From NCBI RefSeq assembly GCF_041886205.1, contig NZ_CP169030.1: a DNA stretch of 64,000 bases, one strand, 5' to 3'. The notes under the pieces are model-generated. The model searched no databases. It was not told where the DNA came from and was given only the letters and a program-made list of their open reading frames with translations. The first letter of the stretch is position 1, and each line of letters opens with the position of its first letter. Shown here in pieces: positions 1-48,895 of the stretch. The position numbers and the translations under genes were made by a program. Source of the DNA: Escherichia coli (GTDB taxonomy: Bacteria; Pseudomonadota; Gammaproteobacteria; Enterobacterales; Enterobacteriaceae).

Positions 1-978
1 GTGGATAAGTCGTCCGGTGAGCTGGTGACACTGACACCAAACAATAACAACACCGTACAACCTGTGGCGCTGATGCGTCTGGGCGTCTTTGTACCGACCC
101 TTAAGTCACTGAAGAACAGTAAAAAAAATACACTGTCACGCACCGATGCCACGGAAGAACTGACGCGTCTTTCCCTGGCCCGTGCAGAAGGATTTGATAA
201 GGTTGAGATCACCGGCCCCCGGCTGGATATGGATAACGATTTCAAGACCTGGGTGGGGATCATTCATTCCTTTGCCCGCCATAACGTGACTGGTGACAAA
301 GTTGAACTGCCTTTTGTCGAGTTTGCAAAACTGTGTGGTATACCCTCAAGCCAGTCATCACGCAGGCTGCGTGAGCGCATCAGCCCTTCCCTGAAACGCA
401 TTGCCGGTACCGTGATCTCCTTTTCCCGCACCGATGAGAAGCACACCCGGGAATACATCACCCATCTGGTACAGTCAGCCTACTACGATACTGAACGGGA
501 TATTGTTCAGTTACAGGCTGATCCCCGACTTTTTGAACTGTACCAGTTTGACAGAAAGGTCCTTCTTCAGCTTAAGGCGATTAATGCCCTGAAGCGACGG
601 GAGTCCGCCCAGGCACTTTACACCTTTATAGAGAGCCTGCCCCGGGATCCGGCACCGATATCGCTGGCGCGGCTGCGTGCCCGCCTCAATCTGAAGTCTC
701 CTGTATTTTCCCAGAACCAGACGGTCAGACGGGCAATGGAGCAGTTGCGAGAGATTGGATATCTTGATTACACGGAGATCCAGCGGGGGCGGACAAAATT
801 CTTCTGTATTCACTACCGGCGTCCCCGGTTAAAAGCGCCGAATGATGAGAGTAAGGAAAATCCGTTGCCACCTTCACCTGCGGAAAAAGTCAGTCCGGAG
901 ATGGCGGAGAAACTTGCCCTGCTTGAAAAACTGGGTATCACGCTGGATGACCTGGAAAAACTCTTCAAATCCCGCTGA
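1..978 (+). CDS. repA: RepFIB-type plasmid replication initiator RepA
   Basis: 325-aa ORF with GTG start exactly at the window edge; translation matches my recollection of IncFIB RepA ([17 protein letters not shown]...); followed by a repeat-rich non-coding region. Confidence 0.85.
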
Positions 979-989
979 ACATAAACTGT

Positions 990-1250
990 AATCAGTGAAG
1001 AGTGCTCCTTTACTGACTACAACTTATATTATCAGGTGCAGTGAGTGGTCTGCTCACTGCAGTTTATATTCAGTTTCCTGCAGTGCTGCCTGTGGCTGAG
1101 CTGCCATCTGCCTGTCCCTTACGTGAGTCACCCCGTAACCTGATGCTGAGGCATTGCTCCCTTCATAAAACATGGTTTACTCACTACAGCTTATCTACCT
1201 GCTCCAGCTTATGTTATGTCTGTTCTGCTGACCACTGCTTATATAAGGAA
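990..1250. repeat. repA-downstream repeat region (putative iterons); contains palindrome GCAGTGAG..CTCACTGC and reiterated CTTAT(A/G)T-containing motifs
   Basis: Read directly; exact iteron units not resolved by eye. Confidence 0.3.
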
Positions 1251-1256
1251 GTGCCG

Positions 1257-1997
1257 TTACTTCAGGGGAGGCAGTGTACGCAGGATCTCCGCAGCATCCC
1301 GCCCGTCACCTGTGAAAGGCACTGCCAGCGTGGCAGCCATATCCAGCGCAAACACTCTGGTATAAACCTCCATCGAACGTGGATCCCTGTGACCAGCCAG
1401 TGCCTGGATGACTTTCCGGGGCTGGCGGTGATAGAGCATGTGCATGATATAGCTGTGCCGGAAGGTATGTGGTGTGACCGGAATCGAAAAGTGCACCCCG
1501 TCAGCTTCGGCCCGCTTCACTGCCTGTTTCAGCCAGTTCCGCATCGTTTCATCCGTCACAGCCCATAACGGTGCACGGCGCCGGGGCCGGGTGGTGATCA
1601 TCCAGCTCTCCATCTGCCTGACATAGCTTATATCCGTCAGCGGGACCAGGCGGACTTCATCTTTTGGAGGGCGCCCGCGTCGCGCACGCACTTTTTCGGA
1701 CAGGATCCGCACAAACGGTCTTACACCATCCAGATCAAATGATTCCGGTGTCAGCATCCGGGCTTCGCCAATACGCATTCCGGTATTCCAGAGGGTGGCG
1801 AACAGCATATGGTGACGCTGATCCGGCATATAGAAAAGAAGGGCACTCACTTCCGGGGCCAGCAGGTAGGCCGGTGTGGCCCCCGTGGAAGTGGCCATTC
1901 TTCTCAGGGAGAGCGCTGTTGCAAAATCCACCCCCGGCGCAATGGGTAACAGGGAGACGCGTTCTGGTGAATTCTGCAGGGGAATGACATTGTTCAT
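1257..1997 (-). CDS. tyrosine site-specific recombinase (phage integrase family)
   Basis: 246 aa; C-terminal HTFRHSY...[15 protein letters not shown] fits the R-H-R-Y catalytic region of tyrosine recombinases. Confidence 0.8.
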
Positions 1998-2752
1998 GAG
2001 TTATTTTTCACGTAGCACACGCACTGTTTATGGATACAGGTATTCTGACCTGAACGCCCGGATCCTTCCACGACAATAAATCGCAGCGCGCGGATCCTTT
2101 TGTTTGCTTATCACGCATTATTGCGGGTAAAACCAAATACGTAAAGGTACGTTTTGCAGCAGGGATCCCGTATTAAGCCAGTCGTGGCGCGGGCTGAGGG
2201 CTGGTTTGCCGTTTTTGGGAGAATTGGGGTAATGCCAGGATGAATGGGATCAGAGAAAACAGAGAAAGGGAACAGAAAGGGAGAAGGTGCACCACGTGTA
2301 TTCTGGCCCGGGACGTCACCGCCCCCTGACAGTTTGACTTTACACAGGAAGGTTGCAGACTCAGCATAATGACTGATTTATATGCAATCCTGCCCATGAT
2401 TAATATAAATCATAATAATGATTATGCAGAAAATCACTTTCGATAAGATGTATATAATTACTACATTTCCATATAGCATTTTCCGCATAAAATAAGAAAA
2501 TATATGTAACTAAAATGTATCAAGTCTGAGATATGATATTATATTAGTGCCTTATTCATTGCCTGATATCCTCTTTCCGTAACCTGCATGTACATGAATC
2601 TTACTCATGATTGCCACTCTCTTATTTATCCTAAGTCCTGTCCCCTCTGAACTGGCGTTTCCTGCGCTCAACTGATATCAAAAGAGGGTTAGCAGGCCCT
2701 GACATCAAAGCACTGATGTTATTTAATGTCGGGAGTAATATTTTATTTAATA

Positions 2753-4252
2753 TCAGTTAGTGTCTCCGGTACCACTTCCCTGACACGTTATATCTTCAGA
2801 TTTCCCCGGAAACAGGAGGTGACGAACAACAGCCTCATCCACACATAAATTAGAGCCAGCTAGCGCCAGCGTATGCCCGTCACCGTTAATAGTCAGTAAC
2901 GGAGCTGAAAATTTATCTGCCATTTTACGGGCATTTATCCAGGGAGTTGTCGGATCATATTTGTGTGCCACAAACAGTAAACCGGATGGTAAAACAGTAT
3001 TCTTCAGGCGTGTCTGTTGCAGATCGCGATGAATTGGCCATAATTCACAAAATTCAGGTAAATCGGACTGTTCCCTCTCAAAATTAACGGCCGGAAATGC
3101 GTCAGCAAGAGCTTTTTTTCGCGATTTTCGTTGTTCCTGTGATAATTGTTCATCACTCTGATCAACACATAATATTACACCCAGAGCATCACTGACTTTT
3201 TCCGATGCTATGGAAGAATTAAGTGCAGTTTCAATTTCATTGCTGACAATACCCTGAGAGAACTGACGTACGGCCGTTGCAAGTGTTGGCCATGATGAGC
3301 GCCATAACAGAAGCTCTGTCGTTAATGATATGAGATCATCTGAAGATATACTTTCCCCCCTGCTGTCTGTTAAAGGAGAATTATGTAATTTTAATAAAAG
3401 CTGATGGAACTGATGTATTGCCTGATTCCTGTCTGAAGAAAGTGGACAACTTTTTGTCCTGGCACACCATGCAGCAAAACGATCAAACGTTTCCTGATAA
3501 CTGTGGGCCTGCCTGAGTTTCCATGAAAAATTATCATTTAAATCATCAATATCAACGACACCGTCAAAAACTATAGATCTGATACTGGATGGAAAGCGTT
3601 CGGCATATAAGGCTGCAATCTGTGTACCGTATGAATATGCTACAGCTGTCAGTTGTTTATCTCCCAGAGCTTGTCTGATGCGTTCAATATCATATACAGC
3701 CTCATGAGATCCAATATGGCGAATGACTTCAGCTCCTGTATTATGGATACAGGCATTAATTTTCTGTAAAATTAGTTGCTTTTCACTTACATTCACCAAT
3801 CTTTCTTGATTGGATTGCTGGCAGTTTATGGCAGGAAAGGACTGACCGACACCTCGTGGATCAAAACCGATAATATCCCATGATTCCCGAAGATTTGTGA
3901 CCGGCCAGTCAAAATTGATATAAGGATTAATTCCGGGTAATCCAGGTCCGCCACTTATTATAATAACACTCCCTTTACGTTTACTTTTTGCCGGCAACTT
4001 TGTCATCGCCAGTCTGACAAGTGGTATATTTTCATCTGACACATCCTCACCTGTGTCGGTATATTTTAGCGGTACAGATAGATATCCGCATAACAACTCA
4101 GGTGAAGAGCTTTCTTTACCAAACCAGTCACTGTATGGGCTGGTCATACAGGATTGCCACTCGATCTGTCTGGCAGACACAGTTCCGCAAAGAAAAACAG
4201 AAAAGATAAAGAATACTAAAGTCCTTCTTAAAGGCTTCATTATCACACGCAT
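2753..4252 (-). CDS. secreted alpha/beta-hydrolase-fold peptidase (S33 prolyl/tripeptidyl aminopeptidase-like)
   Basis: 499 aa; N-terminal signal peptide (MKPLRRTLVFFIFSVFLCGTVSA); GGPG oxyanion-like motif and AYSYGT nucleophile-elbow-like motif; start codon uncertain (M1 or M5). Confidence 0.55.
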   Translation of the reverse strand: MRVIMKPLRRTLVFFIFSVFLCGTVSARQIEWQSCMTSPYSDWFGKESSSPELLCGYLSVPLKYTDTGEDVSDENIPLVRLAMTKLPAKSKRKGSVIIISGGPGLPGINPYINFDWPVTNLRESWDIIGFDPRGVGQSFPAINCQQSNQERLVNVSEKQLILQKINACIHNTGAEVIRHIGSHEAVYDIERIRQALGDKQLTAVAYSYGTQIAALYAERFPSSIRSIVFDGVVDIDDLNDNFSWKLRQAHSYQETFDRFAAWCARTKSCPLSSDRNQAIHQFHQLLLKLHNSPLTDSRGESISSDDLISLTTELLLWRSSWPTLATAVRQFSQGIVSNEIETALNSSIASEKVSDALGVILCVDQSDEQLSQEQRKSRKKALADAFPAVNFEREQSDLPEFCELWPIHRDLQQTRLKNTVLPSGLLFVAHKYDPTTPWINARKMADKFSAPLLTINGDGHTLALAGSNLCVDEAVVRHLLFPGKSEDITCQGSGTGDTN

Positions 4253-4344
4253 TGCATCTCCTGCATTGGTAAATTATTACCCTGACCAACAGACAGAATC
4301 CCCGGCGGTATAATTCTCACCGGGGATGATGACAGTTAAAGTTG

Positions 4345-5292
4345 TTAAAACGTGTACTTCAGACCGGCCGTCGTAATGAAGTTGTAATTTTCAATTCCAG
4401 CCCCGTTATTATTATGCTCCGAAGTATTATCACTACGGTCGTAAAGAGATGTATCCCCTTTTTTATTTGTGAGACGACTCCATACACCCTCGATGTACAC
4501 TTTTGCCTCTGGGGTAATATAGTAACCGGCATTAACTGCAACAGAATAGTAATTCTGGTTTATTACTTTGCTTCGGAATGTAGTTTGTCTTACATAATGC
4601 TCATCATTATCAGATCCCCTGACCCACCCGCTGTATTTAAATGCACCACCAAACTCAAAATTATCGTAACGGTAGTTTCCTGTCAGACCGACATAAGGAA
4701 TTTTAAAATGTTGTTTATAACCAATCACTTTTATTTTATCAGGTAACGCTCCCGTTTCATTCCGGAAACCACCATTCTCACTATAAATATAAGTTCCTCC
4801 TGTAGCATTAAAACTGTAACGGCTTTCCTGATAACCTGCCATAATAGCAAGGCGATAATCAGATTCTTTTAAAAACCAGCCTTTAACGTTCAAATCAAAT
4901 TCGTTGGCATAATTAAGACGTGTATCAGGATGCCTGCTTTCATCTGTCCATGTTCCGGGAGTCCCGGAATCCATCCAGTCCTGATCAACCATATTCCCCC
5001 CCCGACTATTGAGAGTGGTCCAGCCAGCTGCACCAACAGATAACCATGGATTCAGCTCCCAGTTAACGGCGCCTTTAAGAATGGCGGCGTTACTGTATTT
5101 CCAGTCCAGTTGGCTGACTTTACGTCCACCTTCTTCAGGCTCATAAACCCGTTCTTTTGTTTTGCCACTCAGTGTACCTAAATTAATCTCTGTACTTATT
5201 TTCTCCGGGCCGAAGAAATCAGAAGCAGAAGCTTCCTGAGAACTGAATACCACAGGTGCTGCAAGCATAATTGCCAGAAGCTTAGTTTGCAT
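4345..5292 (-). CDS. ompT: omptin-family outer-membrane protease (plasmid OmpT-like)
   Basis: 315 aa; clearly homologous but not identical to E. coli OmpT by recall (shared DQDWMDS, TWTDESRHPDT and C-terminal GLKYTF). Confidence 0.85.
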   Translation of the reverse strand: MQTKLLAIMLAAPVVFSSQEASASDFFGPEKISTEINLGTLSGKTKERVYEPEEGGRKVSQLDWKYSNAAILKGAVNWELNPWLSVGAAGWTTLNSRGGNMVDQDWMDSGTPGTWTDESRHPDTRLNYANEFDLNVKGWFLKESDYRLAIMAGYQESRYSFNATGGTYIYSENGGFRNETGALPDKIKVIGYKQHFKIPYVGLTGNYRYDNFEFGGAFKYSGWVRGSDNDEHYVRQTTFRSKVINQNYYSVAVNAGYYITPEAKVYIEGVWSRLTNKKGDTSLYDRSDNTSEHNNNGAGIENYNFITTAGLKYTF

Positions 5293-5940
5293 AACAATGA
5301 CTCCCTTCTGTCACTTCTACATATGTATATGATTCTTTTGATGTACACCGGTAAGTCAATTATCAGTACTTAATTTGTTTAGCTTTTGTTTAACCTAATA
5401 GTTTGTTTTTGTGAGGTATATCAATATATCTAAATGATATGCGGTAATGGTGTGTATGTCATCTGAACATTCTTTATGGATAGTCTGTATAGACAGAACT
5501 TAATGTTAACATGGCTATTTGTTTATATAGATAGTCATTTTTATCTTAATACATCTGGCACATTATCTATTTGATATACTGATATGGTTCTGTAATGAGG
5601 TAAGAGTTTAGCTACTAAATGGAGGGCCTGACGCAACTACAGGATATGAGGTGAAAATATCGTCCTGATATGGCATAGTGAAATATTATAGTCGCTTTCT
5701 TAACTTATCCGGGCCTGGATAAAGTCCTCAGTTTTTTCTGATGGATTGTTGGATTTTTTAAGATTTTTTTATCTTTTTACTTCAAAAAAGATCTTGTAAT
5801 TATTGCAGTAAGTTGCATTGATAATGATTTTGCTATTGTATACAAAAAAACAGACCTCATAGCATAGCACTTTTAAATTTGTATATTACAATATACATAA
5901 AAGTCATGTCAATTATCACTTAAGGTTTGTTAAAAATCAT

Positions 5941-8900
5941 ATGAGCCATAAATTTTATTATGTTATCTCTTTCCTTCTCTCTCTGGCATCATCACCTTCG
6001 ATAGGTGATGAAATGAATTGCCAACGTTATTTTTGTTTTGTTAATGGCATTGTTGAAATAAGGACTGCTCCCGAAGAATATCAAAACAAGCCAGTTCTGG
6101 TTGGTTCACAAAGTGACGGGCTATTAATTATTGATAATCATGCGGATATTGAGGATGGTATATTTTCCACACTTCATATTGGTAATGGATATAATGGTGC
6201 TGTTGATGTTATTAATGGTGCTGCTTTACATATGGATAATCGTTCAGGAAGCGCACCTCTTATTGTAGGTGCATTCGGTAATGATATTGCAGGAAAACTT
6301 AATATTTCTGGCAGAAACAGTATAGTATCATATAGAGATACGCCCAGCAGTTCTGGACATAACGAATCTATTTATGTCGGTTTTGGGCTTGGTGCAACAG
6401 GATGGATTAATATTTTTAATGGTGGAGTATTTGAAGTTTTAAATAGTACTAATATATATGTAGGTTCAGATACTCCTGGTGGGGGAGATGGCAGTATCGT
6501 GATTGATGGCAGCAACAGCAAGATGACCGCAGATTTTTCTGAGGCATATGTCGGGCTTTATGGTAATGGTGATATTTCCTTAAAAAATGGAGGTCAGTTA
6601 TCTGCCAGTAACTTATATATAGGAGGTAATGGTAGAGCCATTGTTAATATAAGCGGTACTGATTCCAGATTAATTGCAAATATGATAACCATATCAGGAA
6701 GTTCTGGTGCGCCGGGCATTTACATAGCAGATCAAGGAATTCTTAATGTAGATAACTACATCAATATAACTACGGCAAATGACACAAAAGGGAAATTATT
6801 CATCAATAGCGACATGCCTGGAACTATTGAATCTAAAGGGATTCTTTTTGGTGTTGGGAAGGCAGAGTTGATTTTTAAACATAACTCTGACAATTATGCT
6901 TTTTCATCACCTTTAATTTCTAAAAACACAGGTAATGGTATAGTTAATGCAGAGAGTGGCGAGACGCATCTCACGGGAGATAATACCGATTATAGTGGTT
7001 TGTTGAATATTTTACCCACGGCAAGTATTGATATCAGTAGTCAAAAAAATATCGGCAAGTCAGTAATTGTTAATAATGGGGTGCTGCAAATAACCAGCCA
7101 GGATGACTGGACATTCAATAATAATATGACTGGTAACGGTTATCTTAATGTTCATACTGGTGGACATAATTTTGCTTTCCAGAATTCAACGAATACACAG
7201 GAATTTACAGGTACGCTGGCATTGTCTGATACACTCTTTGACTTGAGTGACGACAATACCACTGCACTAACTTCAGCACTAGTGCTTGCTGGGGTCGGGA
7301 GTGTGATAACTGCAGGTACTGGAACTCAGGTTATTAACGGATTTTCATTTGACGGTGGAGCCGTAAATTTCGGTGCCGTAACTCAGGGAGCTCAGCAAAC
7401 TGAATCCCAGATTCAGGTTACTGACAATCTGTATATCAATGGAAATGGTGCTGTACGGGTTTCAACACCCACAGATGTGAATGGTATTCCACAGGTCATT
7501 AATTCTTCACTTTCATTGCTGGAACAGGATGACAGTAATGCCACCATTAAACTTGTAGATGCAAGTTCCGCAGTTGTAAAGGGGAATGGTGGAAACCTTC
7601 AACTGCAGGATGCCTCCGGGCAAGTAATATCCTCAGGTAAGCAAAGGAATATAGTTCAACAGGGAAAAAATGTTGCTAAGGGGGTATACGATTATCGTCT
7701 GACATCAGGGCCCCATAATGATGGACTGTATATAGGTTATGCTCTGACTCAGCTTGATTTGCTAGCCTCTGGTGTTGATGCACTCGTGCTTGATGCTGCA
7801 GGTACAACTGGAAATGCAGCAGACATGAGTGCCCGTATCACAGGTGCCGGAGACCTGGCTTTCAACAGTCAGAAAGGAGAAACCGTTTCTCTGTCGAATC
7901 AGGATAATGATTACACAGGAGTTACAGCTATCCGCGGTGGTAATGTCCTCATGAACAGCAACAGTGTTCTGGGACAGACCAGCGAGATTCGTCTGGCTAC
8001 TGATACCCGGCTGGACATGAACGGTCATAGCCAGACTGTTGGTAAGCTTAATGGTGCTGCAGGTTCTGTACTGAACATCAATGGCGGGAATTTGACCCTG
8101 ACTGATGATGGCGTATCTGCCGGTACTCTGACTGGAGGTGGCTTCCTGAATATCAGCGGCGGCGTCCTCGATATTACAGGAGGCAACCACACTTTTGCTG
8201 TCAGCACCATAATAGCAAAAGATGCAACTGTCCGAATGAACGATGTTTCCGGACTGGGTACTGGTAACATCAGTAACGCTGGGACATTATCTCTTACTCA
8301 TGCCTCAGGCTTGCTAAGTAATAATCTGAGTGGTTCTGGTACAGTATCTTTGATCAATAGTGATACCCAGATTTCAGGAAATAACAGTAACTACTCAGGG
8401 CTGTTTGTAGTAGATACCAGCTCTCAGTTGACTGCCACTGGAGCGCAGAATCTTGGGATTGCTTCCGTGAGTAACCGTGGAATCTTGCAGCTGAACAACA
8501 CAACAGACTGGCAACTTATAAATAATGTTACTGGAACCGGTAATGTCCGTAAAACCGGTTCCGGTTCACTGACTGTCCGAAGCAATGCTGCCTGGAGCGG
8601 ACAGACAGATATTGATGACGGCTCTCTGATTCTTGGGCAATCTGATGCACCTGTCATGCTCGCCAGTAGCCTGGTCAATATTGCAAAGAACGGTAAACTT
8701 ACCGGATTTGGTGGCGTAGTAGGGAACGTAACCAATAGTGGAAGCCTTGACCTGCGATCGGCGGCTCCGGGAAATATTCTGACGATTGGAGGTAACTACA
8801 CCGGTAATAATGGCACGCTGCTCATTAACACAGTGCTGGATGATAGCTCTTCTGCAACCGACAAACTGGTAATTAAAGGCGATGCGTCCGGTAAGACCCG

Positions 8901-10128
8901 AGTGGCTGTTACGAATGTTGGTGGTTCAGGCGCTAATACGCTGAATAGTATTGAAGTTATTCATGTTGATGGTAATGCAGCTAACGCTGAATTTATTCAG
9001 GCCGGACGTATAGCGGCCGGCGCTTATGACTATACTCTTGGACGTGGGCCGGGAAGCAACTATGGAAACTGGTATCTGAGCAGTAGTAAAAATACTCCAG
9101 AACCAAGGCCTGATCCTGAACCTACTCCGGAAGGGCATGATAACAACCTGCGTCCGGAGGCTGGCACATACACCACAAACCTCGTTGCTGCGAACACCAT
9201 GTTTGTGACCCGCCTTCATGAACGTCTGGGGCAGACGCAATACGTCGATGCAATTACCGGAGAACCGAAAGCAACCAGTATGTGGATGCGCCATGAAGGA
9301 GGACATAACCGCTGGCGCGACGGTTCTGGTCAACTGAAAACTCAAAGTAATCGTTATGTGATTCAACTGGGTGGTGATATCGCACAATGGGATTGGGGTG
9401 GAACTAACCGCTGGCATCTGGGGGTTATGGCTGGTTACGGTAACAACCATAGCAGTACAGGTGCAGTACGCACCGGATACCATTCAAAAGGCAGCGTAAA
9501 TGGTTACAGTACCGGGCTGTATGCTACCTGGTATGCTGATGATGAGACTCATAACGGAGCTTATCTGGATACCTGGGCTCAGTACGGCTGGTTCGATAAC
9601 CATGTGAAAGGTGACGGACTGCCGGGTGAATCCTGGAAATCAAAAGGACTTACCGCCTCACTGGAAACAGGTTATGCCTGGAAAATCGGGGAATTCAGCA
9701 GCAACTATGGCAATCTGAACGAATGGTATGTTCAGCCTCAGGCCCAGCTTGTCTGGATGGGGGTTAAAGCTGATGAACTCTATGAAAGTAACGGTACTCT
9801 TATTGAAAGCACCGGAGACGGTAATGTCCATACCCGTCTGGGCGTGAAAACCTGGATTAAAAGGCTCAATAAAATGGATGATGGTAAATCACGTGAGTTC
9901 AGCCCATTTGTGGAGGTGAACTGGTTGCATAATACCCGTGATTTTGGGGTTCGTATGAACGGCGAACCGGTGTATCAGGATGGTACCCGTAATATCGGAG
10001 AGGTCAAAACTGGTGTGGAAGGTCAAATAAATCCCCATCTGAACCTGTGGGGGAATGTGAGAGTTCAAGTTGGTGATAAAGGGTATAACGACACCTCAGC
10101 CATGCTGGGTGTGAAGTATACATTCTGA
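5941..10128 (+). CDS. AIDA-type (type Va) autotransporter, 1395 aa
   Basis: Long Gly/Asn/Thr-rich beta-helix-like passenger; C-terminal region with autotransporter beta-barrel hallmarks ending in KYTF; AT-rich. Confidence 0.75.
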   Translation: MSHKFYYVISFLLSLASSPSIGDEMNCQRYFCFVNGIVEIRTAPEEYQNKPVLVGSQSDGLLIIDNHADIEDGIFSTLHIGNGYNGAVDVINGAALHMDNRSGSAPLIVGAFGNDIAGKLNISGRNSIVSYRDTPSSSGHNESIYVGFGLGATGWINIFNGGVFEVLNSTNIYVGSDTPGGGDGSIVIDGSNSKMTADFSEAYVGLYGNGDISLKNGGQLSASNLYIGGNGRAIVNISGTDSRLIANMITISGSSGAPGIYIADQGILNVDNYINITTANDTKGKLFINSDMPGTIESKGILFGVGKAELIFKHNSDNYAFSSPLISKNTGNGIVNAESGETHLTGDNTDYSGLLNILPTASIDISSQKNIGKSVIVNNGVLQITSQDDWTFNNNMTGNGYLNVHTGGHNFAFQNSTNTQEFTGTLALSDTLFDLSDDNTTALTSALVLAGVGSVITAGTGTQVINGFSFDGGAVNFGAVTQGAQQTESQIQVTDNLYINGNGAVRVSTPTDVNGIPQVINSSLSLLEQDDSNATIKLVDASSAVVKGNGGNLQLQDASGQVISSGKQRNIVQQGKNVAKGVYDYRLTSGPHNDGLYIGYALTQLDLLASGVDALVLDAAGTTGNAADMSARITGAGDLAFNSQKGETVSLSNQDNDYTGVTAIRGGNVLMNSNSVLGQTSEIRLATDTRLDMNGHSQTVGKLNGAAGSVLNINGGNLTLTDDGVSAGTLTGGGFLNISGGVLDITGGNHTFAVSTIIAKDATVRMNDVSGLGTGNISNAGTLSLTHASGLLSNNLSGSGTVSLINSDTQISGNNSNYSGLFVVDTSSQLTATGAQNLGIASVSNRGILQLNNTTDWQLINNVTGTGNVRKTGSGSLTVRSNAAWSGQTDIDDGSLILGQSDAPVMLASSLVNIAKNGKLTGFGGVVGNVTNSGSLDLRSAAPGNILTIGGNYTGNNGTLLINTVLDDSSSATDKLVIKGDASGKTRVAVTNVGGSGANTLNSIEVIHVDGNAANAEFIQAGRIAAGAYDYTLGRGPGSNYGNWYLSSSKNTPEPRPDPEPTPEGHDNNLRPEAGTYTTNLVAANTMFVTRLHERLGQTQYVDAITGEPKATSMWMRHEGGHNRWRDGSGQLKTQSNRYVIQLGGDIAQWDWGGTNRWHLGVMAGYGNNHSSTGAVRTGYHSKGSVNGYSTGLYATWYADDETHNGAYLDTWAQYGWFDNHVKGDGLPGESWKSKGLTASLETGYAWKIGEFSSNYGNLNEWYVQPQAQLVWMGVKADELYESNGTLIESTGDGNVHTRLGVKTWIKRLNKMDDGKSREFSPFVEVNWLHNTRDFGVRMNGEPVYQDGTRNIGEVKTGVEGQINPHLNLWGNVRVQVGDKGYNDTSAMLGVKYTF

Positions 10129-10761
10129 CTATGGTTTTCTGTAAATTCAAAATATACTTAGTTTATTTTGAGTCAAGTTTAATCATAAATTAAATGGCTG
10201 ATAATTTCATACTAATTACTGACAAAACAGAATTAAGAATAACAACAAGAAGTAAATACAAATAAAATAGCATAAATATAATTATTTTTATCCATTCATG
10301 TCATCTGTAATATACATAAAGATATTAATGTGTTTAATCTGAATCAGGTGCTCTCAGAATATCAATTTATTATATATGGTAACTATCTGTTCAGTAAATA
10401 ACATACTCATCTTTAAGTTGATGATGTAGTAAGAAACACCACTGCGCAACTTGTTCTGGCTATTATTGTTAACATTGTTTATGGATAGACATGCTTTGGT
10501 ATTTTGAATATAAAGAAAAATAAGCAATTTCACAAACAAATTCAGATAAGTAGTCATAGCAAAAGAGAGCCCCTCTTTGGGAGTTTGCACGAAAGTTAAC
10601 ATTTTTTTTGTCATAAAATACATAGCATTACGATGGCGCTTGATGATTTGTGCTCAAACTGAAAAGAATATTCTGATTTTTCGTGATGTTGAGGGTATTC
10701 TGTAAAAAAACGTTATCTATTTCCTCAGTTTTAATTTTGTTTTATTTTTACTTTATCTATT

Positions 10762-39638: not shown

Positions 39639-40695
39639 GGCTTTGTTGAATAAATCAGATTTCGGGTAAGTCTCCCCCGTAGCGGGTTGTGTTTTCAGGC
39701 AATACGCACGCTTTCAGGCATACCTGCTTTCGTCATTTTGTTCAGCGCTCGTACCAGGGCCATAGCCTCTGCAACCTGACCATCGTAGTCACGCAGCGTC
39801 AGTGAACCCCCGAACAGCTGTTTTACCCGGTACATCGCCGTTTCCGCTATCGAGCGACGGTTGTAATCTGTTGTCCATTTCCACCGCGCATTACTCCCGG
39901 TCATTCGCTGATTAGCCACTGCACGGTTACGGTCTGCATATTCACCGGGCCAGTAACCCGCACCTTTTCGGGGAGGGATAAGCGCGCTGATTTTCTTACG
40001 CCGCAGTTCATCGTGACATAGCCGGGTATCGTAAGCGCCATCGGCGGCGGCTGACCTGATTTTCCGGTGGGTTTGCCGGATTAACCCGGGGAAGGCCTCT
40101 GAGTCCGTAACGTTGTTCAGCGACAGGTCAGCGCAGATGATTTCATGTGTTTTACTGTCAACGGCGAGATGCAGCTTACGCCAGATACGGCGGCGTTCCT
40201 GGCCATGCTTTTTGACTTTCCACTCGCCTTCACCGAAGACCTTCAGCCCGGTGGAATCAATTACCAGGTGTGCGATTTCACCCCGGGTGGGCGTTTTGAA
40301 ACTGACATTAACCGACTTTGCCCGCCTGCTGACACAGCTGTAATCCGGGCAGCGTAGCGGAACGTTCATCAGAGAAAAAATGGAATCAATAAAGCCCTGC
40401 GCAGCGCGCAGGGTCAGCCTGAATACGCGTTTAATGACCAGCACAGTCGTGATGGCAAGGTCAGAATAGCGCTGAGGTCTGCCTCGTGAAGAAGGTGTTG
40501 CTGACTCATACCAGGCCTGAATAGCTTCATCATCCAGCCAGAAAGTTATGGAGCCACGGTTGATGAGGGCTTTATTGTAGGTGGGCCAGTTGGTGATTTT
40601 GAACTTTTGCTTTGCCACGGAACGGTCTGCGTTGTCGGGAAGATACGTGATCTGATCCTTCAACTCAGCAAAAGTTCGATTTATTCAACAAAGCC
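39639..40695 (-). mobile_element. IS903-like element (IS5 family, 1057 bp)
   Basis: 18-bp terminal inverted repeats GGCTTTGTTGAATAAATC at 39639-39656 and 40678-40695 (reverse complement); 9-bp flanks differ (GTAAGAATA vs CGTAATTCA). Confidence 0.85.
39695..40663 (-). CDS. IS903-group transposase
   Basis: 322-aa DDE transposase. Confidence 0.85.
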   Translation of the reverse strand: MKDQITYLPDNADRSVAKQKFKITNWPTYNKALINRGSITFWLDDEAIQAWYESATPSSRGRPQRYSDLAITTVLVIKRVFRLTLRAAQGFIDSIFSLMNVPLRCPDYSCVSRRAKSVNVSFKTPTRGEIAHLVIDSTGLKVFGEGEWKVKKHGQERRRIWRKLHLAVDSKTHEIICADLSLNNVTDSEAFPGLIRQTHRKIRSAAADGAYDTRLCHDELRRKKISALIPPRKGAGYWPGEYADRNRAVANQRMTGSNARWKWTTDYNRRSIAETAMYRVKQLFGGSLTLRDYDGQVAEAMALVRALNKMTKAGMPESVRIA

Positions 40696-40810
40696 CGTAA
40701 TTCATTTTATCTCCTACAAGATTATTTAATGGAATGAAAAATATCTGGCCTGATAATAATGTTCCAGAATTAATATCTGCAGGCTATGTTAAGTTGTCCC
40801 CACACACAAT

Positions 40811-41086
40811 CTACCTGTTTTCTCGTGTGTGCCACAGGCGCAATACATAAATAGTCTGGCCATTAAGTTCGTAACGGATTTCGTACTCGCCAGCAAAAAT
40901 CCGTCTGACCTCCCTGGGTTCAAACTGAAACAACTGTTCTCCCATACGTGGATGAGTTAACAGAATGACCGGTGCCTGTGTCAGGGATTGCACCGTTCTG
41001 GCGGCCGCAGGTTTACTGGCCAGCACCAGAAAATCATATAACCGCGCCAAATCAGAAAGCGCCTTACTGGTCCACTTCAGTTCCAT
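40811..41086 (-). CDS. ParE/RelE-family toxin
   Basis: 91 aa; C-terminal YVLRLWHTRE typical of ParE/RelE fold. Confidence 0.7.
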   Translation of the reverse strand: MELKWTSKALSDLARLYDFLVLASKPAAARTVQSLTQAPVILLTHPRMGEQLFQFEPREVRRIFAGEYEIRYELNGQTIYVLRLWHTRENR

Positions 41087-41370
41087 CAGCGTGGCACCGG
41101 TAACGGATTGTCAGTACTGAGGCTGTCCGCCCAGGCCTGTACAGCCTGATGGTCGATAACCTGTCCGGATGTCACATCGTCCAGGGCTTCCAGCGTCAGG
41201 CGATTACGCTCCTCCTCCTGGGCAAGCCATGCAGAAAGCGCCTGTTTGATAACCCAGCCCCGGGAGCGTTCCAGCCTGGCGGCCATCTGGTCGACTTTAT
41301 CAGCCATAGGTAATGGCACATGCGCGGTAATGACTTTTGTTGCTTGTGCACTATTGTTTTTCATTTGCAT
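41086..41370 (-). CDS. ribbon-helix-helix antitoxin (ParD/CopG-like)
   Basis: 94 aa; overlaps toxin start by 1 nt. Confidence 0.65.
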   Translation of the reverse strand: MQMKNNSAQATKVITAHVPLPMADKVDQMAARLERSRGWVIKQALSAWLAQEEERNRLTLEALDDVTSGQVIDHQAVQAWADSLSTDNPLPVPR

Positions 41371-41466
41371 ATCCGATTAGTTGTTAATCATATTTAATCA
41401 TAGTGATTACATTCAGACCGAACAAGGCAAATAATGCGCATCTGCGCATGTAAGGCAGCATACGGA

Positions 41467-41520
41467 GGTTACATGTAACACAGGTGTAAAACCGCCAAAG
41501 CCCGGCGTAAGCCGGTACGG
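41467..41520. repeat. 54-bp GC-rich element with internal palindrome CCGGC..GCCGG, copy 1
   Basis: GGTTACATGT...GTAAAACCGCC(A/G)AAGCCCGGCGTAAGCCGGTACGG; second copy at 63652-63705. Confidence 0.6.
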
Positions 41521-41565
41521 TCGTCCGAATATCACCAGTCCCACTCCGGCCCTGCGAGGCCATGT

Positions 41566-41603
41566 GGGGGGAACCGCAGAATTCGGAAAAAATCGTACGC
41601 TAA
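41566..41603 (+). repeat. 38-bp terminal inverted repeat (mcp end) GGGGGAACCGCAGAATTCGGAAAAAATCGTACGCTAAG
   Basis: Read directly. Confidence 0.85.
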
Positions 41604-41755
41604 GCTAACGGTGTTCTCGTGACAGCTCTTTGACTAGGCTTTCTAAGGCCATTCTGATAGCCCTGACTTCCTGAAAAGCCATGGCTAAAATTTGTGCGGC
41701 TAAAAGGGATAACCGATGGTAAAGTAAGTTATCCCTGTCGAGATACTGAAAAGCG

Positions 41756-43333
41756 TTATCCTCGTTTTTCCCAAAACTGTTTTGCCAGTTCGCTCAGAGC
41801 GCTAGTTAACTGAGCGACAGATTTCGCACTTTGCAAATTATTCTGCCCGGTCTGTACATTGGTATCAGCAGCATCGCGTATATTGATAATACTGCGGTTT
41901 ATGTCTTCACTTACTGCTCCCTGCTGCTCGACCGCAGTCGCTATTTGCGCGTTCATGTCGGTAATTTCGTTAACGCGTTGGCCAATTCCATCAAGAGCTG
42001 TAGCTGCTTCCTCTGCGTGAGCTACACTCGTGTGCGCTTGCCGACTACTTTGCTCCATGACTGTAACAGCGGATTGCGCTCGCTCTTGTAGAGCGCTGAT
42101 CATGCTTTGAATATCCGTTGTCGATTGCTGTGTGCGAGCAGCAAGACTGCGAACCTCATCGGCGACAACAGCAAAACCACGCCCCTGCTCACCAGCACGC
42201 GCGGCCTCAATTGCTGCGTTGAGTGCCAACAAATTCGTTTGCTCGGCGATCCCTCGTATAACGTCAAGAACTTTTGATATCTCGTTACTTTGACCTTCAA
42301 GCTCATGAATAACCTGAGTGGCTTGCCTAATTTCACCTTCAAGGGCAGTGATTGACTGGCTTGTGTGGGCTACCAGACGCTGGCCAGATGCCGTCTCAGT
42401 GTCTGCTCTTCCGGCCGCATCTGCAGCATGCTGTGCATTGCTCGCAACCTCTTGAATGCTTGCCACCATTTGGTTTACTGCCGTTGCTATTTGATCTGTC
42501 TCTGCCTGCTGCTCAACTGTAAGTACATTGCTTGACTCAATATCCTTTAGTAGGCCTCGGGTGTGTTCGCTAAGCCGATTTGATGCATCACCTATGCGAC
42601 CTACTATGGCGCCTGTTTCAGCTTGCATCATTCGTAAAGCAAACTCTATTTGGCCAAACTCATCGGTGCGCCCAGTGTAGAGGGATTGACTTAATGGGTT
42701 ATTGGAAATATTCTTGGCTCTTTCAACCAGTCTTCCAAGAGGAGAGAGAATAGCCAAAACACTAACAGAGCTTAAGCTTCCTGACATTAAAGTGGCTAAC
42801 AATAAGCTGCTTATTGATGTATCAGTAAGCATGCCGGCAGCCATTGCGCTTGATATAATACTACCCCATATGAGCAAGAGTATTTTCACGGAAAAGCTAG
42901 CAGCCAATTTCGGCCTCGCGGCCTTCCCGCTTCTCAATTGAGCATATAATTTTTCCGCAGCCAAAACCTGCTCAGGTTCAGGCTTGGTCCTTACAGACTG
43001 GTATTCAACAATCGAACCATTCTTAGCTATTGGCGTTACATAAGCACTTACCCAATAGTGGTCGCCATTTTTACAGCGATTTTTTACTAGCCCCATCCAT
43101 GAGCGGCCAGATTTTAATGTACTCCACATATGCTCAAATGCAGCAGGCGGCATATCTGGGTGTCTTACGATGTTGTGAGGCTGGCCTAATAGTTCTTCCT
43201 CAGTGAAACCACTGATTTTAATGAAGTCAGGATTAACGTACGTGATATGGCTTTGAGGGGAGGTAGTCGAAAGAATATTGGCATCTTTTGGGAGTTCTAA
43301 GTTTCGACCCGTCACTGGTAAATTCTGGCGCAT
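41756..43333 (-). CDS. methyl-accepting chemotaxis protein with PAS domain (Tn1721 orfI-like)
   Basis: 525 aa; PAS-like N-terminus, transmembrane segments, MCP signalling domain. Confidence 0.8.
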
Positions 43334-43625
43334 AAGAACCTCAAGGGTTGGCTGTTTTATTTTATTGTTTTCGGCATTAAGCCCAATTTCTTGAGCGTTA
43401 CGATAAAGCTAGCATGGAAACGATAGGTGCAAGCAAGTTAAGGGTTGCATCGCGCATGTCAATCTAGGCTATACCCTAACTTGATGTCAGGCAGGGCCGC
43501 GCCGCTTCGTCAGAATAGAGTCTGCTTTCCCATTTTTTGACACATGCCCGCGAAGGTTATAGATTTCAGCCTGACAGAAATGGGCTTTGAGGCACAACGG
43601 AACAGAAAGTGCACTTAAGCCGCCT

Positions 43626-43650
43626 TGTCATTTTCAGAAGACGACTGCAC
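43626..43650 (+). repeat. Tn402 IRt (TGTCATTTTCAGAAGACGACTGCAC)
   Basis: Read directly. Confidence 0.85.
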
Positions 43651-43766
43651 CAGTTGATTGGGCGTAATGGCTGTTGTGCAGCCAGCTCCTGACAGTTCAA
43701 TATCAGAAGTGATCTGCACCAATCTCGACTATGCTCAATACTCGTGTGCACCAAAGCGAGGTGAGC

Positions 43767-45446
43767 ATGGCGACGGACACCCCACGGATTCCAGAACAAG
43801 GCGTGGCCACTCTGCCTGATGAGGCTTGGGAGCGTGCGCGCCGTCGTGCGGAGATCATCAGTCCGTTGGCGCAGTCGGAGACGGTCGGGCACGAAGCGGC
43901 CGATATGGCGGCTCAGGCGCTGGGCTTGTCTCGGCGCCAGGTATACGTTCTGATCCGGCGTGCCCGGCAAGGCAGCGGCCTCGTGACGGATCTGGTGCCC
44001 GGCCAGTCCGGTGGAGGTAAAGGTAAGGGGCGCTTGCCGGAACCGGTCGAGCGCGTCATCCACGAGCTACTGCAAAAGCGGTTCCTGACCAAGCAGAAGC
44101 GCAGCCTAGCGGCCTTTCACCGCGAAGTCACTCAGGTGTGCAAGGCTCAAAAACTGCGAGTGCCGGCGCGCAATACCGTGGCCTTACGGATCGCTAGCCT
44201 TGACCCGCGCAAGGTCATCCGCCGGCGGGAAGGCCAGGATGCCGCTCGTGACCTACAAGGTGTGGGCGGCGAGCCTCCTGCCGTGACCGCGCCGCTGGAG
44301 CAGGTGCAGATAGACCATACGGTCATCGACCTGATCGTGGTCGATGACCGCGACCGGCAACCTATTGGCCGCCCGTACCTGACCCTCGCCATCGACGTGT
44401 TCACCCGCTGCGTGCTCGGCATGGTCGTCACGCTGGAAGCGCCGTCTGCCGTTTCGGTTGGCCTGTGCCTCGTGCATGTCGCCTGCGACAAGCGCCCTTG
44501 GCTGGAAGGACTGAACGTGGAAATGGATTGGCAGATGAGCGGCAAGCCCTTGCTGCTCTACCTAGACAACGCGGCCGAGTTCAAGAGCGAGGCCCTGCGC
44601 CGGGGTTGCGAGCAGCATGGCATCCGGCTGGACTATCGCCCGCTGGGACAGCCGCACTATGGCGGCATCGTGGAACGGATCATCGGCACGGCGATGCAGA
44701 TGATTCACGACGAACTGCCGGGAACGACCTTCTCCAACCCTGACCAGCGCGGCGACTACGATTCCGAAAACAAGGCCGCCCTGACGCTGCGCGAGCTAGA
44801 GCGCTGGCTCACATTGGCGGTCGGCACCTACCACGGTTCGGTGCACAACGGCCTGCTCCAACCGCCGGCCGCGCGCTGGGCCGAGGCCGTGGCGCGTGTC
44901 GGCGTACCGGCCGTCGTCACACGCGCTACTTCGTTCCTGGTCGATTTTCTGCCGATCCTCCGGCGCACGCTGACCCGCACCGGCTTTGTCATCGACCACA
45001 TCCACTACTACGCCGATGCGCTCAAGCCGTGGATTGCGCGGCGTGAACGCTGGCCGTCCTTTCTGATCCGGCGCGATCCGCGCGACATCAGCCGTATCTG
45101 GGTCCTGGAACCGGAGGGACAGCATTACCTGGAAATTCCCTACCGTACCTTGTCGCATCCGGCTGTCACCCTCTGGGAACAACGGCAGGCGCTGGCGAAA
45201 CTGCGGCAGCAAGGGCGCGAACAGGTGGATGAGTCGGCGCTGTTCCGCATGATCGGCCAGATGCGTGAGATTGTGACCAGCGCGCAGAAGGCCACACGCA
45301 AGGCGCGGCGTGACGCGGATCGCCGCCAGCACCTCAAGACATCAGCTCGGCCGGACAAGCCCGTTCCGCCGGATACGGATATTGCCGACCCGCAGGCAGA
45401 CAACTTGCCACCCGCCAAACCGTTCGACCAGATTGAGGAGTGGTAG
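43767..45446 (+). CDS. tniA: TniA transposase (DDE)
   Basis: 559 aa starting MATDTPRIPEQG, as recalled for Tn402 TniA. Confidence 0.85.
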   Translation: MATDTPRIPEQGVATLPDEAWERARRRAEIISPLAQSETVGHEAADMAAQALGLSRRQVYVLIRRARQGSGLVTDLVPGQSGGGKGKGRLPEPVERVIHELLQKRFLTKQKRSLAAFHREVTQVCKAQKLRVPARNTVALRIASLDPRKVIRRREGQDAARDLQGVGGEPPAVTAPLEQVQIDHTVIDLIVVDDRDRQPIGRPYLTLAIDVFTRCVLGMVVTLEAPSAVSVGLCLVHVACDKRPWLEGLNVEMDWQMSGKPLLLYLDNAAEFKSEALRRGCEQHGIRLDYRPLGQPHYGGIVERIIGTAMQMIHDELPGTTFSNPDQRGDYDSENKAALTLRELERWLTLAVGTYHGSVHNGLLQPPAARWAEAVARVGVPAVVTRATSFLVDFLPILRRTLTRTGFVIDHIHYYADALKPWIARRERWPSFLIRRDPRDISRIWVLEPEGQHYLEIPYRTLSHPAVTLWEQRQALAKLRQQGREQVDESALFRMIGQMREIVTSAQKATRKARRDADRRQHLKTSARPDKPVPPDTDIADPQADNLPPAKPFDQIEEW

Positions 45447-46357
45447 CCGTGGACGAATATCCCATCATCGACCTGTCCCACCTGCTGCCGGCGGCCCAGG
45501 GCTTGGCCCGTCTTCCGGCGGACGAGCGCATCCAGCGCCTTCGCGCCGACCGCTGGATCGGCTATCCGCGCGCAGTCGAGGCGCTGAACCGGCTGGAAGC
45601 CCTTTATGCGTGGCCAAACAAGCAACGCATGCCCAACCTGCTGCTGGTTGGCCCGACCAACAATGGCAAGTCGATGATCGTCGAGAAGTTCCGCCGCACC
45701 CACCCGGCCAGCTCCGACGCCGACCAGGAGCACATCCCGGTGTTGGTCGTGCAGATGCCGTCCGAGCCGTCCGTGATCCGCTTCTACGTCGCGCTGCTCG
45801 CCGCGATGGGCGCGCCGCTGCGCCCACGCCCACGGTTGCCGGAAATGGAGCAACTGGCTCTGGCACTGCTGCGCAAGGTCGGCGTGCGCATGCTGGTGAT
45901 CGACGAGCTGCACAACGTGCTGGCCGGCAACAGCGTCAACCGCCGGGAATTCCTCAACCTGCTGCGCTTCCTCGGCAACGAACTGCGCATCCCGTTGGTT
46001 GGGGTAGGCACGCGCGACGCCTACCTAGCCATCCGCTCCGATGACCAGTTGGAAAATCGCTTCGAGCCGATGATGCTGCCGGTATGGGAGGCCAACGACG
46101 ATTGCTGCTCACTGCTGGCCAGCTTCGCCGCTTCGCTCCCGCTGCGCCGGCCTTCCCCAATTGCCACGCTGGACATGGCTCGCTACCTGCTCACACGCAG
46201 CGAGGGCACCATAGGGGAACTGGCGCACTTGCTGATGGCGGCGGCCATCGTCGCCGTGGAGAGCGGCGAGGAAGCGATCAACCATCGCACACTCAGCATG
46301 GCCGTTTACACCGGACCCAGCGAGCGGCGGCGGCAATTCGAGCGGGAACTGATGTGA
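45440..46357 (+). CDS. tniB: TniB ATP-binding protein
   Basis: Walker A GPTNNGKS; exact start codon uncertain. Confidence 0.8.
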   Translation: MVAVDEYPIIDLSHLLPAAQGLARLPADERIQRLRADRWIGYPRAVEALNRLEALYAWPNKQRMPNLLLVGPTNNGKSMIVEKFRRTHPASSDADQEHIPVLVVQMPSEPSVIRFYVALLAAMGAPLRPRPRLPEMEQLALALLRKVGVRMLVIDELHNVLAGNSVNRREFLNLLRFLGNELRIPLVGVGTRDAYLAIRSDDQLENRFEPMMLPVWEANDDCCSLLASFAASLPLRRPSPIATLDMARYLLTRSEGTIGELAHLLMAAAIVAVESGEEAINHRTLSMAVYTGPSERRRQFERELM

Positions 46358-47571
46358 AGCCTGCGCCGCGCTGGCCGCTGCATCCCGCCCCGAAAGAAGG
46401 CGAGGCGCTGTCCTCATGGCTCAACCGCGTGGCCCTTTGCTATCACATGGAGGAGCCCGACCTGCTGGAGCACGATCTTGGTCACGGCCAGGTCGATGAC
46501 CTGGACACCGCGCCACCACTCTCGCTGCTGGCGTTGCTTTCCCAGCGGAGCGGCATCGAGCTGGACCGGCTGCGCTGTATGAGTTTCGCCGGATGGGTGC
46601 CTTGGCTACTGGACAGCCTTGATGACCAGATTCCAGACGCCTTGGAAACCTATGCGTTTCAGCTCTCGGTGTTGCTGCCAAGACTCCGCCGTAAGACGCG
46701 ATCCATCACGAGCTGGCGTGCCTGGCTGCCCAGCCAGCCGATAAACCGCGCCTGTCCGCTCTGCCTGAGCGATCCGGAGAACCAAGCCGTACTGCTCGCG
46801 TGGAAGCTGCCCCTGATGCTGAGCTGCCCGCTGCATGGCTGCTGGCTGGAATCCTATTGGGGCGTGCCAGGGCGGTTTCTCGGCTGGGAGAACGCCGACG
46901 CCGAACCGCGCACCGCCAGCGACGCGATTGCGGCGATGGACCAGCGTACCTGGCAGGCACTGACAACCGGTCACGTGGAGCTGCCGCGCCGACGCATCCA
47001 CGCCGGATTGTGGTTTCGACTTCTTCGCACGCTGCTCGATGAGCTGAACACCCCGCTTTCCGCGTGCGGAACCTGCGCGGGGTATCCCCGCCAAGTCTGG
47101 GAAGGCTGCGGGCATCCGCTGCGTGCTGGGCAAAGTCTGTGGCGACCGTATGAAACCCTGAATCCGATAGTACGGTTACAGATGCTGGAGGCGGCGGCAA
47201 CGGCAATCAGCTTGATTGAGGTGAGGGACATCAGCCCGCCAGGCGAGCAGGCAAAGCTATTCTGGTCCGAGCCCCAAACCGGGTTCACCAGTGGCCTGCC
47301 GACGAAAGCGCCGAAGCCCGAGCCCATCAATCACTGGCAGCGTGCAGTCCAGGCCATCGACGAGGCCATCATTGAAGCGCGACACAACCCCGAGACGGCA
47401 CGCTCGCTGTTCGCGTTGGCTTCCTATGGTCGGCGCGATCCCGCTTCCTTGGAACGGTTGCGCGCCACCTTCGTGAAGGAAGGCATCCCGCCGGAATTTC
47501 TGTCACATTACCTGCCTGATGCACCCTTTGCATGTCTTAAACAAAATGACGGGTTAAGTGACAAATTTTGA
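46354..47571 (+). CDS. tniQ: TniQ
   Basis: 405 aa from GTG at 46354; ORF-track extension from 46084 judged spurious. Confidence 0.75.
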   Translation: MKPAPRWPLHPAPKEGEALSSWLNRVALCYHMEEPDLLEHDLGHGQVDDLDTAPPLSLLALLSQRSGIELDRLRCMSFAGWVPWLLDSLDDQIPDALETYAFQLSVLLPRLRRKTRSITSWRAWLPSQPINRACPLCLSDPENQAVLLAWKLPLMLSCPLHGCWLESYWGVPGRFLGWENADAEPRTASDAIAAMDQRTWQALTTGHVELPRRRIHAGLWFRLLRTLLDELNTPLSACGTCAGYPRQVWEGCGHPLRAGQSLWRPYETLNPIVRLQMLEAAATAISLIEVRDISPPGEQAKLFWSEPQTGFTSGLPTKAPKPEPINHWQRAVQAIDEAIIEARHNPETARSLFALASYGRRDPASLERLRATFVKEGIPPEFLSHYLPDAPFACLKQNDGLSDKF

Positions 47572-47617
47572 CGGATAGAGCTTTCCGGCTCACACTGTCA
47601 CATAATCGAACGTATAC

Positions 47618-48793: not shown

Positions 48794-48895
48794 AATATTT
48801 CTCCATGGAGTTCCGCGAAGAAATTTTAGGTTCGATTTAAGAAAAAAAACAGTCTTGTTGCTGGCCGAAATTTGTGCGCACAGCAAAGCATCTAA

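Follow-up and report, generated by a model that had tools for sequence, protein, structure and literature searches.

The window analysed here is a 64,000-nucleotide stretch of Escherichia coli plasmid DNA (contig NZ_CP169030.1, assembly GCF_041886205.1), whose left end holds a RepFIB replication region followed by cargo genes for a hydrolase, an omptin protease and two autotransporters. A first-pass annotation had flagged positions 2753-10128 as a cluster of hydrolase, omptin and autotransporter genes; the open reading frame list of the window shows all three genes intact and at the coordinates given for them. The features of this region are:

1..978, plus strand: repB, RepFIB replication initiator and left neighbour of the cargo, 99.7% identical in amino acid sequence to F RepB WP_000361610.1
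1257..1997, minus strand: int, tyrosine recombinase beside RepFIB, 99.2% identical to the F protein (2 substitutions)
2118..2252 (approximate, transferred from F annotation), minus strand: Ser/Thr kinase pseudogene remnant between int and yuaR, a RefSeq pseudogene at the equivalent place in F of strain EMG2
2707..5441, minus strand: conserved omptin-hydrolase cassette of ~2.7 kb (PhoP-box promoter, ompP, hairpin, yuaR), continuous at 86.4-86.5% nucleotide identity with a chromosomal and a metagenomic copy
2753..4252, minus strand: yuaR, predicted exported alpha/beta serine hydrolase of the S33 family (Hip1 / tripeptidyl-peptidase-like), 499 residues, UniProt YUAR_ECOLI cluster
~4300..4326, minus strand: GC-rich hairpin with T-rich tail directly 3' of the ompP stop codon, ten-pair stem in minimum-free-energy and centroid folds, z=-2.4
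4345..5292, minus strand: ompP, F-plasmid omptin outer-membrane protease, 315 residues, 100% amino acid identity to F OmpP
5376..5392, plus strand: perfect PhoP box TGTTTA-N5-TGTTTA, TGTTTAGCTTTTGTTTA, 84-100 bp upstream of ompP and on the opposite strand
5941..10128, plus strand: ychA / YuaQ, predicted classical (type Va) autotransporter, 1395 residues, beta-helix-type passenger and AIDA-I-like translocator, 99.5% identical to F
10762..16071, plus strand: second autotransporter, 1769 residues, outside the flagged range but in the same F cargo block, 97.7% identical to F WP_040078930.1
11892..13527, plus strand: ~4.4 copies of a 372-bp (124-residue) tandem repeat in the passenger of the second autotransporter, found by Tandem Repeats Finder

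This stretch is very probably the standard accessory region that adjoins RepFIB in classical F and in related plasmids associated with cattle, and its genes are identified accordingly. A megablast search with window positions 2001-10500 against 72,556 plasmids returned full-length matches at 99.6-99.9% identity, with 74 plasmid records covering at least 80% of the query. The classical F plasmid of E. coli K-12 (NC_002483) matched at 99.6% nucleotide identity with 100% of the query covered, and cattle or bovine sources accounted for most of the closest records. Plasmids matching the window are typed IncFIB. Positions 1-17000 align with F as a single colinear block at 98.8% nucleotide identity. 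Gene order in both NC_002483 and the F plasmid of EMG2 (NZ_CP099589) runs repB, int, kinase remnant, hydrolase, ompP, autotransporter, autotransporter, and all genes, their order, orientation and spacing in classical F (NC_002483 / AP001918) are as in the window. Relative to F there is one substitution in RepB, two in the hydrolase (K69E and T467S), none in OmpP, seven in the first autotransporter and forty in the second, while the 648-nt spacer between ompP and ychA is 100% identical. At the level of sequence, a material difference between these reading frames and those of F is thereby excluded.

Because it is near-identical to F, the region is already known rather than a new island, and has been in databases since F was sequenced; the novelty implied by the first-pass annotation found no support, identity with a well-described plasmid region being an outcome that this annotation had itself named as refuting. 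The exact protein sequences are present in public collections, where UniProt names two of them 'Putative hydrolase YuaR' and 'YuaQ', and Browning et al. (2023) list ycbB, ychA, ompP and IncFIB as one F block (PMC9997739). The finding itself matters little, given that OmpP is biochemically characterised and that laboratory F' strains carry the same DNA.

The physical description given earlier, a hydrolase, omptin and autotransporter cluster in low-GC DNA adjoining RepFIB, was accurate. The content of guanine plus cytosine (GC) is 51-58% over positions 1-2000, the replication region, and 30-47% from 2000 to ~8000, with 30% in the spacer between ompP and the autotransporter gene. The neighbours on the replication side are repB and int, the latter with XerC/XerD-type NCBIfam matches that each fall under their cut-offs. 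The flagged range had the three genes right, but its end at 10128 misses the second autotransporter of the same F block.

The omptin of the window is F OmpP (WP_001193612.1), 100% identical over 315 residues, and scores 615.7 bits against omptin model NF008222 (cut-off 537) with residues 1-315 covered, so that its description as a plasmid-type omptin was correct. The family assignment is Pfam PF01278 and MEROPS A26. It matches the sequence of the OmpT structure 1I78 with E=8e-149, and D103, D105, D230 and H232 of the precursor align with the catalytic Asp83, Asp85, Asp210 and His212 of mature OmpT. Its supposed resemblance to the ompT of ColV-type plasmids found no support: OmpP is no closer to ColV-type OmpTp/ArlC (70.2% identity) than to chromosomal OmpT (70.5%).

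Published experiments describe the activity of this protein directly. The identical OmpP, cloned from XL1-Blue F', cleaves the RK FRET (fluorescence resonance energy transfer) peptide and C18G, and Magainin II less efficiently, while mCRAMP, LL-37 and RNase 7 are not cleaved; ompP was absent from 58 clinical E. coli isolates in the same study (PMC6854850). A genome-wide association study linked ompP with cattle and arlC with chickens (PMC10088187), and the cattle association fits the cattle or bovine origin of the best BLAST matches.

The hydrolase, YuaR, had been described as S33-like and signal-peptide-bearing, and this description stands. Its Pfam matches are Abhydrolase_1 (4.9e-35) and, at the C-terminus, the TAP-like domain Abhydrolase_4 (8.7e-14), and among solved structures its best sequence match is Mycobacterium tuberculosis Hip1 (carboxylesterase A), with E=9e-51 over residues 27-480. 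The ATG at 4252 has an AGGAG 5 nt ahead of it, in support of the 499-residue start. The amino terminus reads MRVIMKPLRRTLVFFIFSVFLCGTVSA and continues with RQ after the proposed signal peptide cleavage site; all proteobacterial homologues of YuaR examined likewise begin with a sequence resembling a Sec type I signal and have no lipobox, signal peptides being judged throughout from sequence alone. In alignments of 17 and 26 homologues, ranging from E. coli to Mycobacterium, S207, D433, H460, G102-P103-G104 and eight cysteines are invariant and G101 is nearly so. The nucleophile S207 sits in a YSYGT elbow, and the triad aligns with the Hip1 motifs. The mature protein has ten cysteines, a number that suits an oxidising compartment, and it is probably disulfide-bonded.

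An AlphaFold2 model of YuaR built from the 26-sequence alignment has a mean pLDDT (predicted local distance difference test) of 87 and a pTM (predicted template modelling score) of 0.87. Its best fold matches in the PDB are six Hip1 entries (TM 0.76-0.84, E ~1e-32), followed by TnmK1 and TnmK2 and then, much more weakly, by prolyl aminopeptidases. Assignment as a prolyl aminopeptidase was rejected, the TIGR01249 equivalog giving only a partial match (residues 167-286) at 38.7 bits against a cut-off of 259.75.

Hip1 (Rv2224c, CaeA), a serine protease of the cell envelope, is of the Streptomyces tripeptidyl-peptidase type; it has 11 cysteines and the triad S228/D463/H490, and acts both as a protease and as an esterase (PMC4022732). 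YuaR resembles Hip1 and the Streptomyces enzymes TPP A/B/C (MEROPS S33) over its full length and has the same Ser-Asp-His order. Both YuaR and Hip1 are cysteine-rich and apparently exported, with ten cysteines in mature YuaR and 11, forming five predicted disulfides, in Hip1. YuaR differs in being only 27-28% identical, in its Gram-negative host, and in its Sec type I signal as opposed to mycobacterial cell-envelope association; the Hip1 substrate GroEL2 is specific to mycobacteria. From its intact Ser207-Asp433-His460 triad, we infer that YuaR is probably an active periplasmic or secreted peptidase or esterase. The possibility, raised earlier, that the hydrolase is a common housekeeping enzyme does not apply, as K-12 has no chromosomal copy. 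Searches of the accessible literature found no experiments on YuaR, on YchA or on the second autotransporter.

YchA is predicted to be a classical autotransporter whose translocator is AIDA-like and whose passenger is uncharacterised. Its C-terminal barrel matches TIGR01414 (391 bits, residues 942-1395), and a Pfam scan of residues 1-1020 found only PATR repeats, the AC_1 autochaperone (929-1018) and Pertactin. The earlier label of AIDA-type autotransporter is thus right for the C-terminal transport unit, where residues 935-1395 match AIDA-I 4MEE with E=2e-94, and fails for the protein as a whole. The full AIDA-I adhesin model NF033176 gives 335 bits against a cut-off of 1200, with the match confined to residues 926-1395, and identification as the AIDA-I adhesin was rejected; the best family match, ECSE_1600, is also under its cut-off. 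YchA shares with AIDA-I the type Va architecture, a closely related transport unit and the AC_1 autochaperone, but its passenger lies outside the region that the AIDA-I model matches.

With one mismatch, a primer that was published for 'ychA (adhesin AidA precursor)' maps to 6386-6422; ychA is therefore the first of the two autotransporter genes. Public annotations of ychA/YuaQ disagree on its start, which is placed at either 5941 (1395 residues) or 6020 (1371 residues). From 5941 the protein begins MSHKFYYVISFLLSLASSPSIG, which is moderately hydrophobic (12-residue Kyte-Doolittle maximum of 1.94), whereas the shorter form begins MNCQRYFCFVNG with no signal-peptide-like sequence. Since only the start at 5941 gives a signal-like amino terminus, it is the more plausible one for an autotransporter.

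The second autotransporter would then be ycbB / YuaO, a name assigned by elimination. Its barrel matches TIGR01414 over residues 1325-1769. The number of its passenger repeats varies among plasmids: cluster members are 1645 or 1769 residues long, 124 residues apart, and the gene is shorter in CP057595. Most of its forty substitutions relative to F fall in the N-terminal passenger and the repeat region.

What is less familiar about this locus is that, in many E. coli, the genes for protease and hydrolase move together as a conserved pair. One chromosomal and one metagenomic copy, whose flanks are unrelated, account for the continuous match over 2707-5441: at 86% nucleotide identity over this interval, the pair is found in an island on the chromosome of strain YC21-F17 and in matching metagenomic contigs. 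Overall, the arrangement recurs in four lineages, in each case with the omptin gene first, the hydrolase gene on the same strand after a spacer of 92-188 bp, and unrelated flanks. At chromosomal ompT, the pair occurs in 1221 of 5426 complete E. coli genomes (~22%), including O157:H7; it is also present in contigs beside an afa-type usher, and in pIncF-MU4, where the omptin gene is interrupted by an IS3 family element. Neither autotransporter is part of this conserved cassette. A three-gene cassette that includes ychA was considered and rejected, as the autotransporter pseudogene upstream of ompT in O157 is only a 29% barrel-level match to ychA.

The chromosomal pair of the O157:H7 type (WP_001201843.1 and WP_001226373.1) likewise consists of an omptin followed on the same strand by an S33 hydrolase with a predicted signal peptide, with a PhoP box ~85-100 bp before the omptin gene and a hairpin after its stop codon. 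It differs from the window pair in protein sequence (70.5% identity for the omptin, 76% for the hydrolase), in its spacer of 186 bp as against 92 bp, in its chromosomal location and in its other flanks. In O157:H7, ompT and the hydrolase gene lie in an island (5164-9738 of the fetched locus) that adjoins minCDE and also carries an autotransporter barrel pseudogene and a helix-turn-helix gene. In K-12 the order is nfrA, ybcH, envY, ompT and then appY (7160-9112 of the fetched locus), with appY where the hydrolase would be. Homology between the O157:H7 and K-12 contexts stops at the ompT stop codon.

Omptin and hydrolase co-diverge, and both are under purifying selection. Their pairwise identities co-vary with r=0.92 over ten comparisons across lineages, which are not independent of one another, and the ratios of nonsynonymous to synonymous substitution rates (dN/dS) are 0.06-0.14 (omptin) and 0.12-0.20 (hydrolase). 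Both YuaR and the chromosomal paralogue by ompT are intact, selected and apparently exported relatives of Hip1, an immunomodulatory protease of M. tuberculosis, and their tight, co-diverging linkage to an omptin gives a concrete hypothesis on the hydrolase that is cheap to test. In the accessible literature, a search found no paper that mentions omptins together with S33 or tripeptidyl peptidases and none that studies the hydrolase or its pairing, an absence of evidence and no more. A search of 1900-17600 for inverted repeats that might mark island or transposon ends found only short, chance-level matches.

No omptin is encoded near the more distant hydrolase homologues (~50% identity) of Salmonella, Budvicia and Serratia. 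In Budvicia diplopodorum the gene for a 55%-identical hydrolase has as neighbours the genes for a Fic protein and for a phosphoethanolamine transferase of the EptA type (1341-6455 of the fetched locus). A link to cationic peptide resistance exists for EptA-type enzymes as well; this adjacency may be coincidence.

The PhoP box upstream of ompP is the only perfect match in the window, where 0.02 would be expected, and every omptin gene in the fetched loci has a PhoP box upstream at the same distance. PhoP dependence of ompP, ompT and arlC, with a conserved PhoP site on the reverse strand, has been reported (bioRxiv 10.1101/2020.02.28.965145). A candidate CRP site upstream of ompP (5410-5425) was dismissed, as a scan for TGTGA-N6-TCACA allowing up to two mismatches gave 20 matches against 27.7 expected. 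Downstream of the omptin gene, the hairpin arms CCCCGG...CCGGGG (CCGGAG in ENA_L018) are kept in all four lineages. The hairpin is likely the omptin terminator, and a possibly leaky one, although a consensus terminator scan did not call it. A consensus promoter scan recognised no promoter of its own for the hydrolase gene in the O157 spacer and none that was convincing in the F spacer. We infer that read-through from the PhoP-controlled ompP promoter accounts for at least part of yuaR transcription. A scan of positions 1-17000 with Rfam gave no match.

The ColV-type plasmid NZ_CP048026 allows a comparison of the same slot, which there holds repB, int, a hypothetical gene, mig-14, hlyF (encoding an SDR enzyme) and ompTp. 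Left of the omptin gene, DNA homology with the window is limited to positions 1-2240 (95% identical); there is none over 2240-4344 or beyond 5232. The break at ~2240, inside the kinase pseudogene remnant, marks the left edge of the lineage-specific cargo. The mig-14 (arlA), hlyF (arlB), ompTp (arlC) locus, the 'arl' locus of ColV and ColBM plasmids and adherent-invasive E. coli, thus shares with the window a plasmid omptin gene preceded by a PhoP box, at the same place relative to repB and int of RepFIB. It differs in that its omptin, only 70% identical to OmpP, is partnered by Mig-14 and an SDR enzyme where the window has an S33 hydrolase, in having no autotransporters, and in that ArlC is associated with chickens where OmpP is associated with cattle. 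ArlC/OmpTp has been associated with antimicrobial peptide resistance (PMC6854850). In NZ_CP048026 the PhoP box before ompTp is at 6237-6253, and a second perfect PhoP box lies at 4819-4835, 53-69 bp upstream of hlyF, which may also be under PhoP control.

Taken together, these results suggest a cargo region made of two independent parts, a minus-strand ompP-yuaR cassette and two classical autotransporters placed divergently to it. The PhoP-box promoter drives ompP, and OmpP, a 10-stranded omptin of the outer membrane, cuts small, unstructured cationic peptides at dibasic sites in published experiments. YuaR, encoded 92 bp downstream, would be exported by Sec, fold with disulfides and hydrolyse peptides (or esters) through Ser207. 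Each autotransporter would be anchored in the outer membrane by a C-terminal beta-barrel and expose a beta-helical passenger, which probably mediates adhesion or aggregation; for YuaR and both autotransporters these roles are proposed by homology, and they are less certain than the gene identifications. That OmpP and YuaR act on the same substrates is speculative.

The arrangement might instead be read as a variant of a ColV/ColBM plasmid, one that kept its ColV-type ompT in place while the hydrolase replaced hlyF and mig-14. The shared slot invites this reading, with the ColV omptin gene ~5.2-6.2 kb from the start of repB on the same strand and the first ~2240 nt 95% identical, and the first-pass annotation, in noting that hlyF and mig-14 are absent and the hydrolase present, had the positional comparison right. 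It is nonetheless highly improbable. The omptin is F OmpP itself and stands about equally far from ColV OmpTp and chromosomal OmpT, DNA homology to the ColV plasmid is missing across 2240-4344 and beyond 5232, and the hydrolase partners omptins in four lineages, including at chromosomal ompT. The ColV trio is therefore a different arrangement rather than an edited ancestor, and the window has the canonical F layout, not a replacement. Identification as the F accessory region stands, with the reservation that the plasmid of the window is a relative of F and not F itself: beyond ~17 kb it is rearranged and carries a resistance region with tet(M), a class 1 integron and TnAs1, so that a cattle-associated plasmid of the ompP-bearing F type (PMC10088187) here also bears resistance genes.

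That omptin and Hip1-like hydrolase work as a single module under PhoP control, in which the omptin would cut cationic host peptides or surface proteins first and the S33 peptidase would trim or inactivate the products or share an envelope substrate, is a tentative idea, and on balance we consider it doubtful. Synteny in four lineages with unrelated flanks, co-divergence with purifying selection on both genes, short spacers with no separate promoter recognised, and a single PhoP box upstream of the pair all speak for such a module, as does the fact that Hip1-type enzymes accept as substrates both proteins and short peptides, Ala-Pro-Ala-pNA for example (PMC4022732). However, linkage may reflect joint mobilisation rather than joint function, four lineages are few independent points, and the correlation comes from non-independent pairs. 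K-12, sequence type 131 (ST131) and other strains keep ompT without the hydrolase, and OmpT, OmpP and ArlC are active when expressed alone (PMC6854850). The terminator-like hairpin kept between the two genes, and the lack of an omptin near more distant hydrolase homologues, also speak against a module. Further observations weigh against the proposed interpretation as a whole. The conserved hairpin between ompP and yuaR, if an efficient terminator, would mean that yuaR depends on a separate promoter, and the scans recognised none. Hydrolases of ~50% identity are encoded with no omptin nearby, which makes the pairing specific to the E. coli lineage. The closest characterised relative of YuaR is a distant one, at the 27-28% identity given above, its fold family includes non-proteases such as TnmK1 and TnmK2, and the functions of YuaR, YchA and the second autotransporter are assigned through homology alone. 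YuaR could in particular be an esterase, lipase or other alpha/beta-hydrolase acting on a lipid or small molecule, not a protease. Hip1 has esterase activity and was first named carboxylesterase A, the next-best fold matches, TnmK1 and TnmK2, are not peptidases, many sources label homologues 'pimeloyl-ACP methyl ester carboxylesterase', and the prolyl aminopeptidase equivalog scores far under its cut-off. We consider this unlikely, since in sequence and in fold YuaR is matched best by Hip1, which is proven to be a serine protease, and since YuaR has a TAP-like C-terminal domain and a GGPG motif. This domain and motif are typical of S33 peptidases. A more specific proposal is that omptin and hydrolase make up an undescribed two-protease module under PhoP control that aids colonisation of the host (cattle), the exported peptidase working with the omptin, for example to complete the breakdown of cationic peptides of the host or to process host or envelope proteins; we put this forward as an improbable but explicit conjecture.

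To the right of the cargo, positions 16000-40000 hold backbone and accessory genes of F type, namely a hypothetical gene (16817-17512) and genes for a bactofilin-like protein, an EAL-domain protein, IS21, a P-loop NTPase, vapBC and an AAA ATPase. In their arrangement they follow bovine plasmids such as NZ_CP074368 and depart from classical F, which has its P-loop NTPase genes on the opposite side of repB. The resistance region, which also holds IS903B and relE/copG, has these features:

~40000-58100: multiresistance region, 100% identical to parts of other E. coli and Salmonella plasmids
41756-43333: PAS-domain chemotaxis protein, in the resistance region
~43767-47571: tniA/B/Q module
~48464-48793: qacG2
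49032-50045 and 53248-54261: intI1, two copies
~50972-52990: tet(M) with leader peptide
55050-58016: TnAs1 transposase

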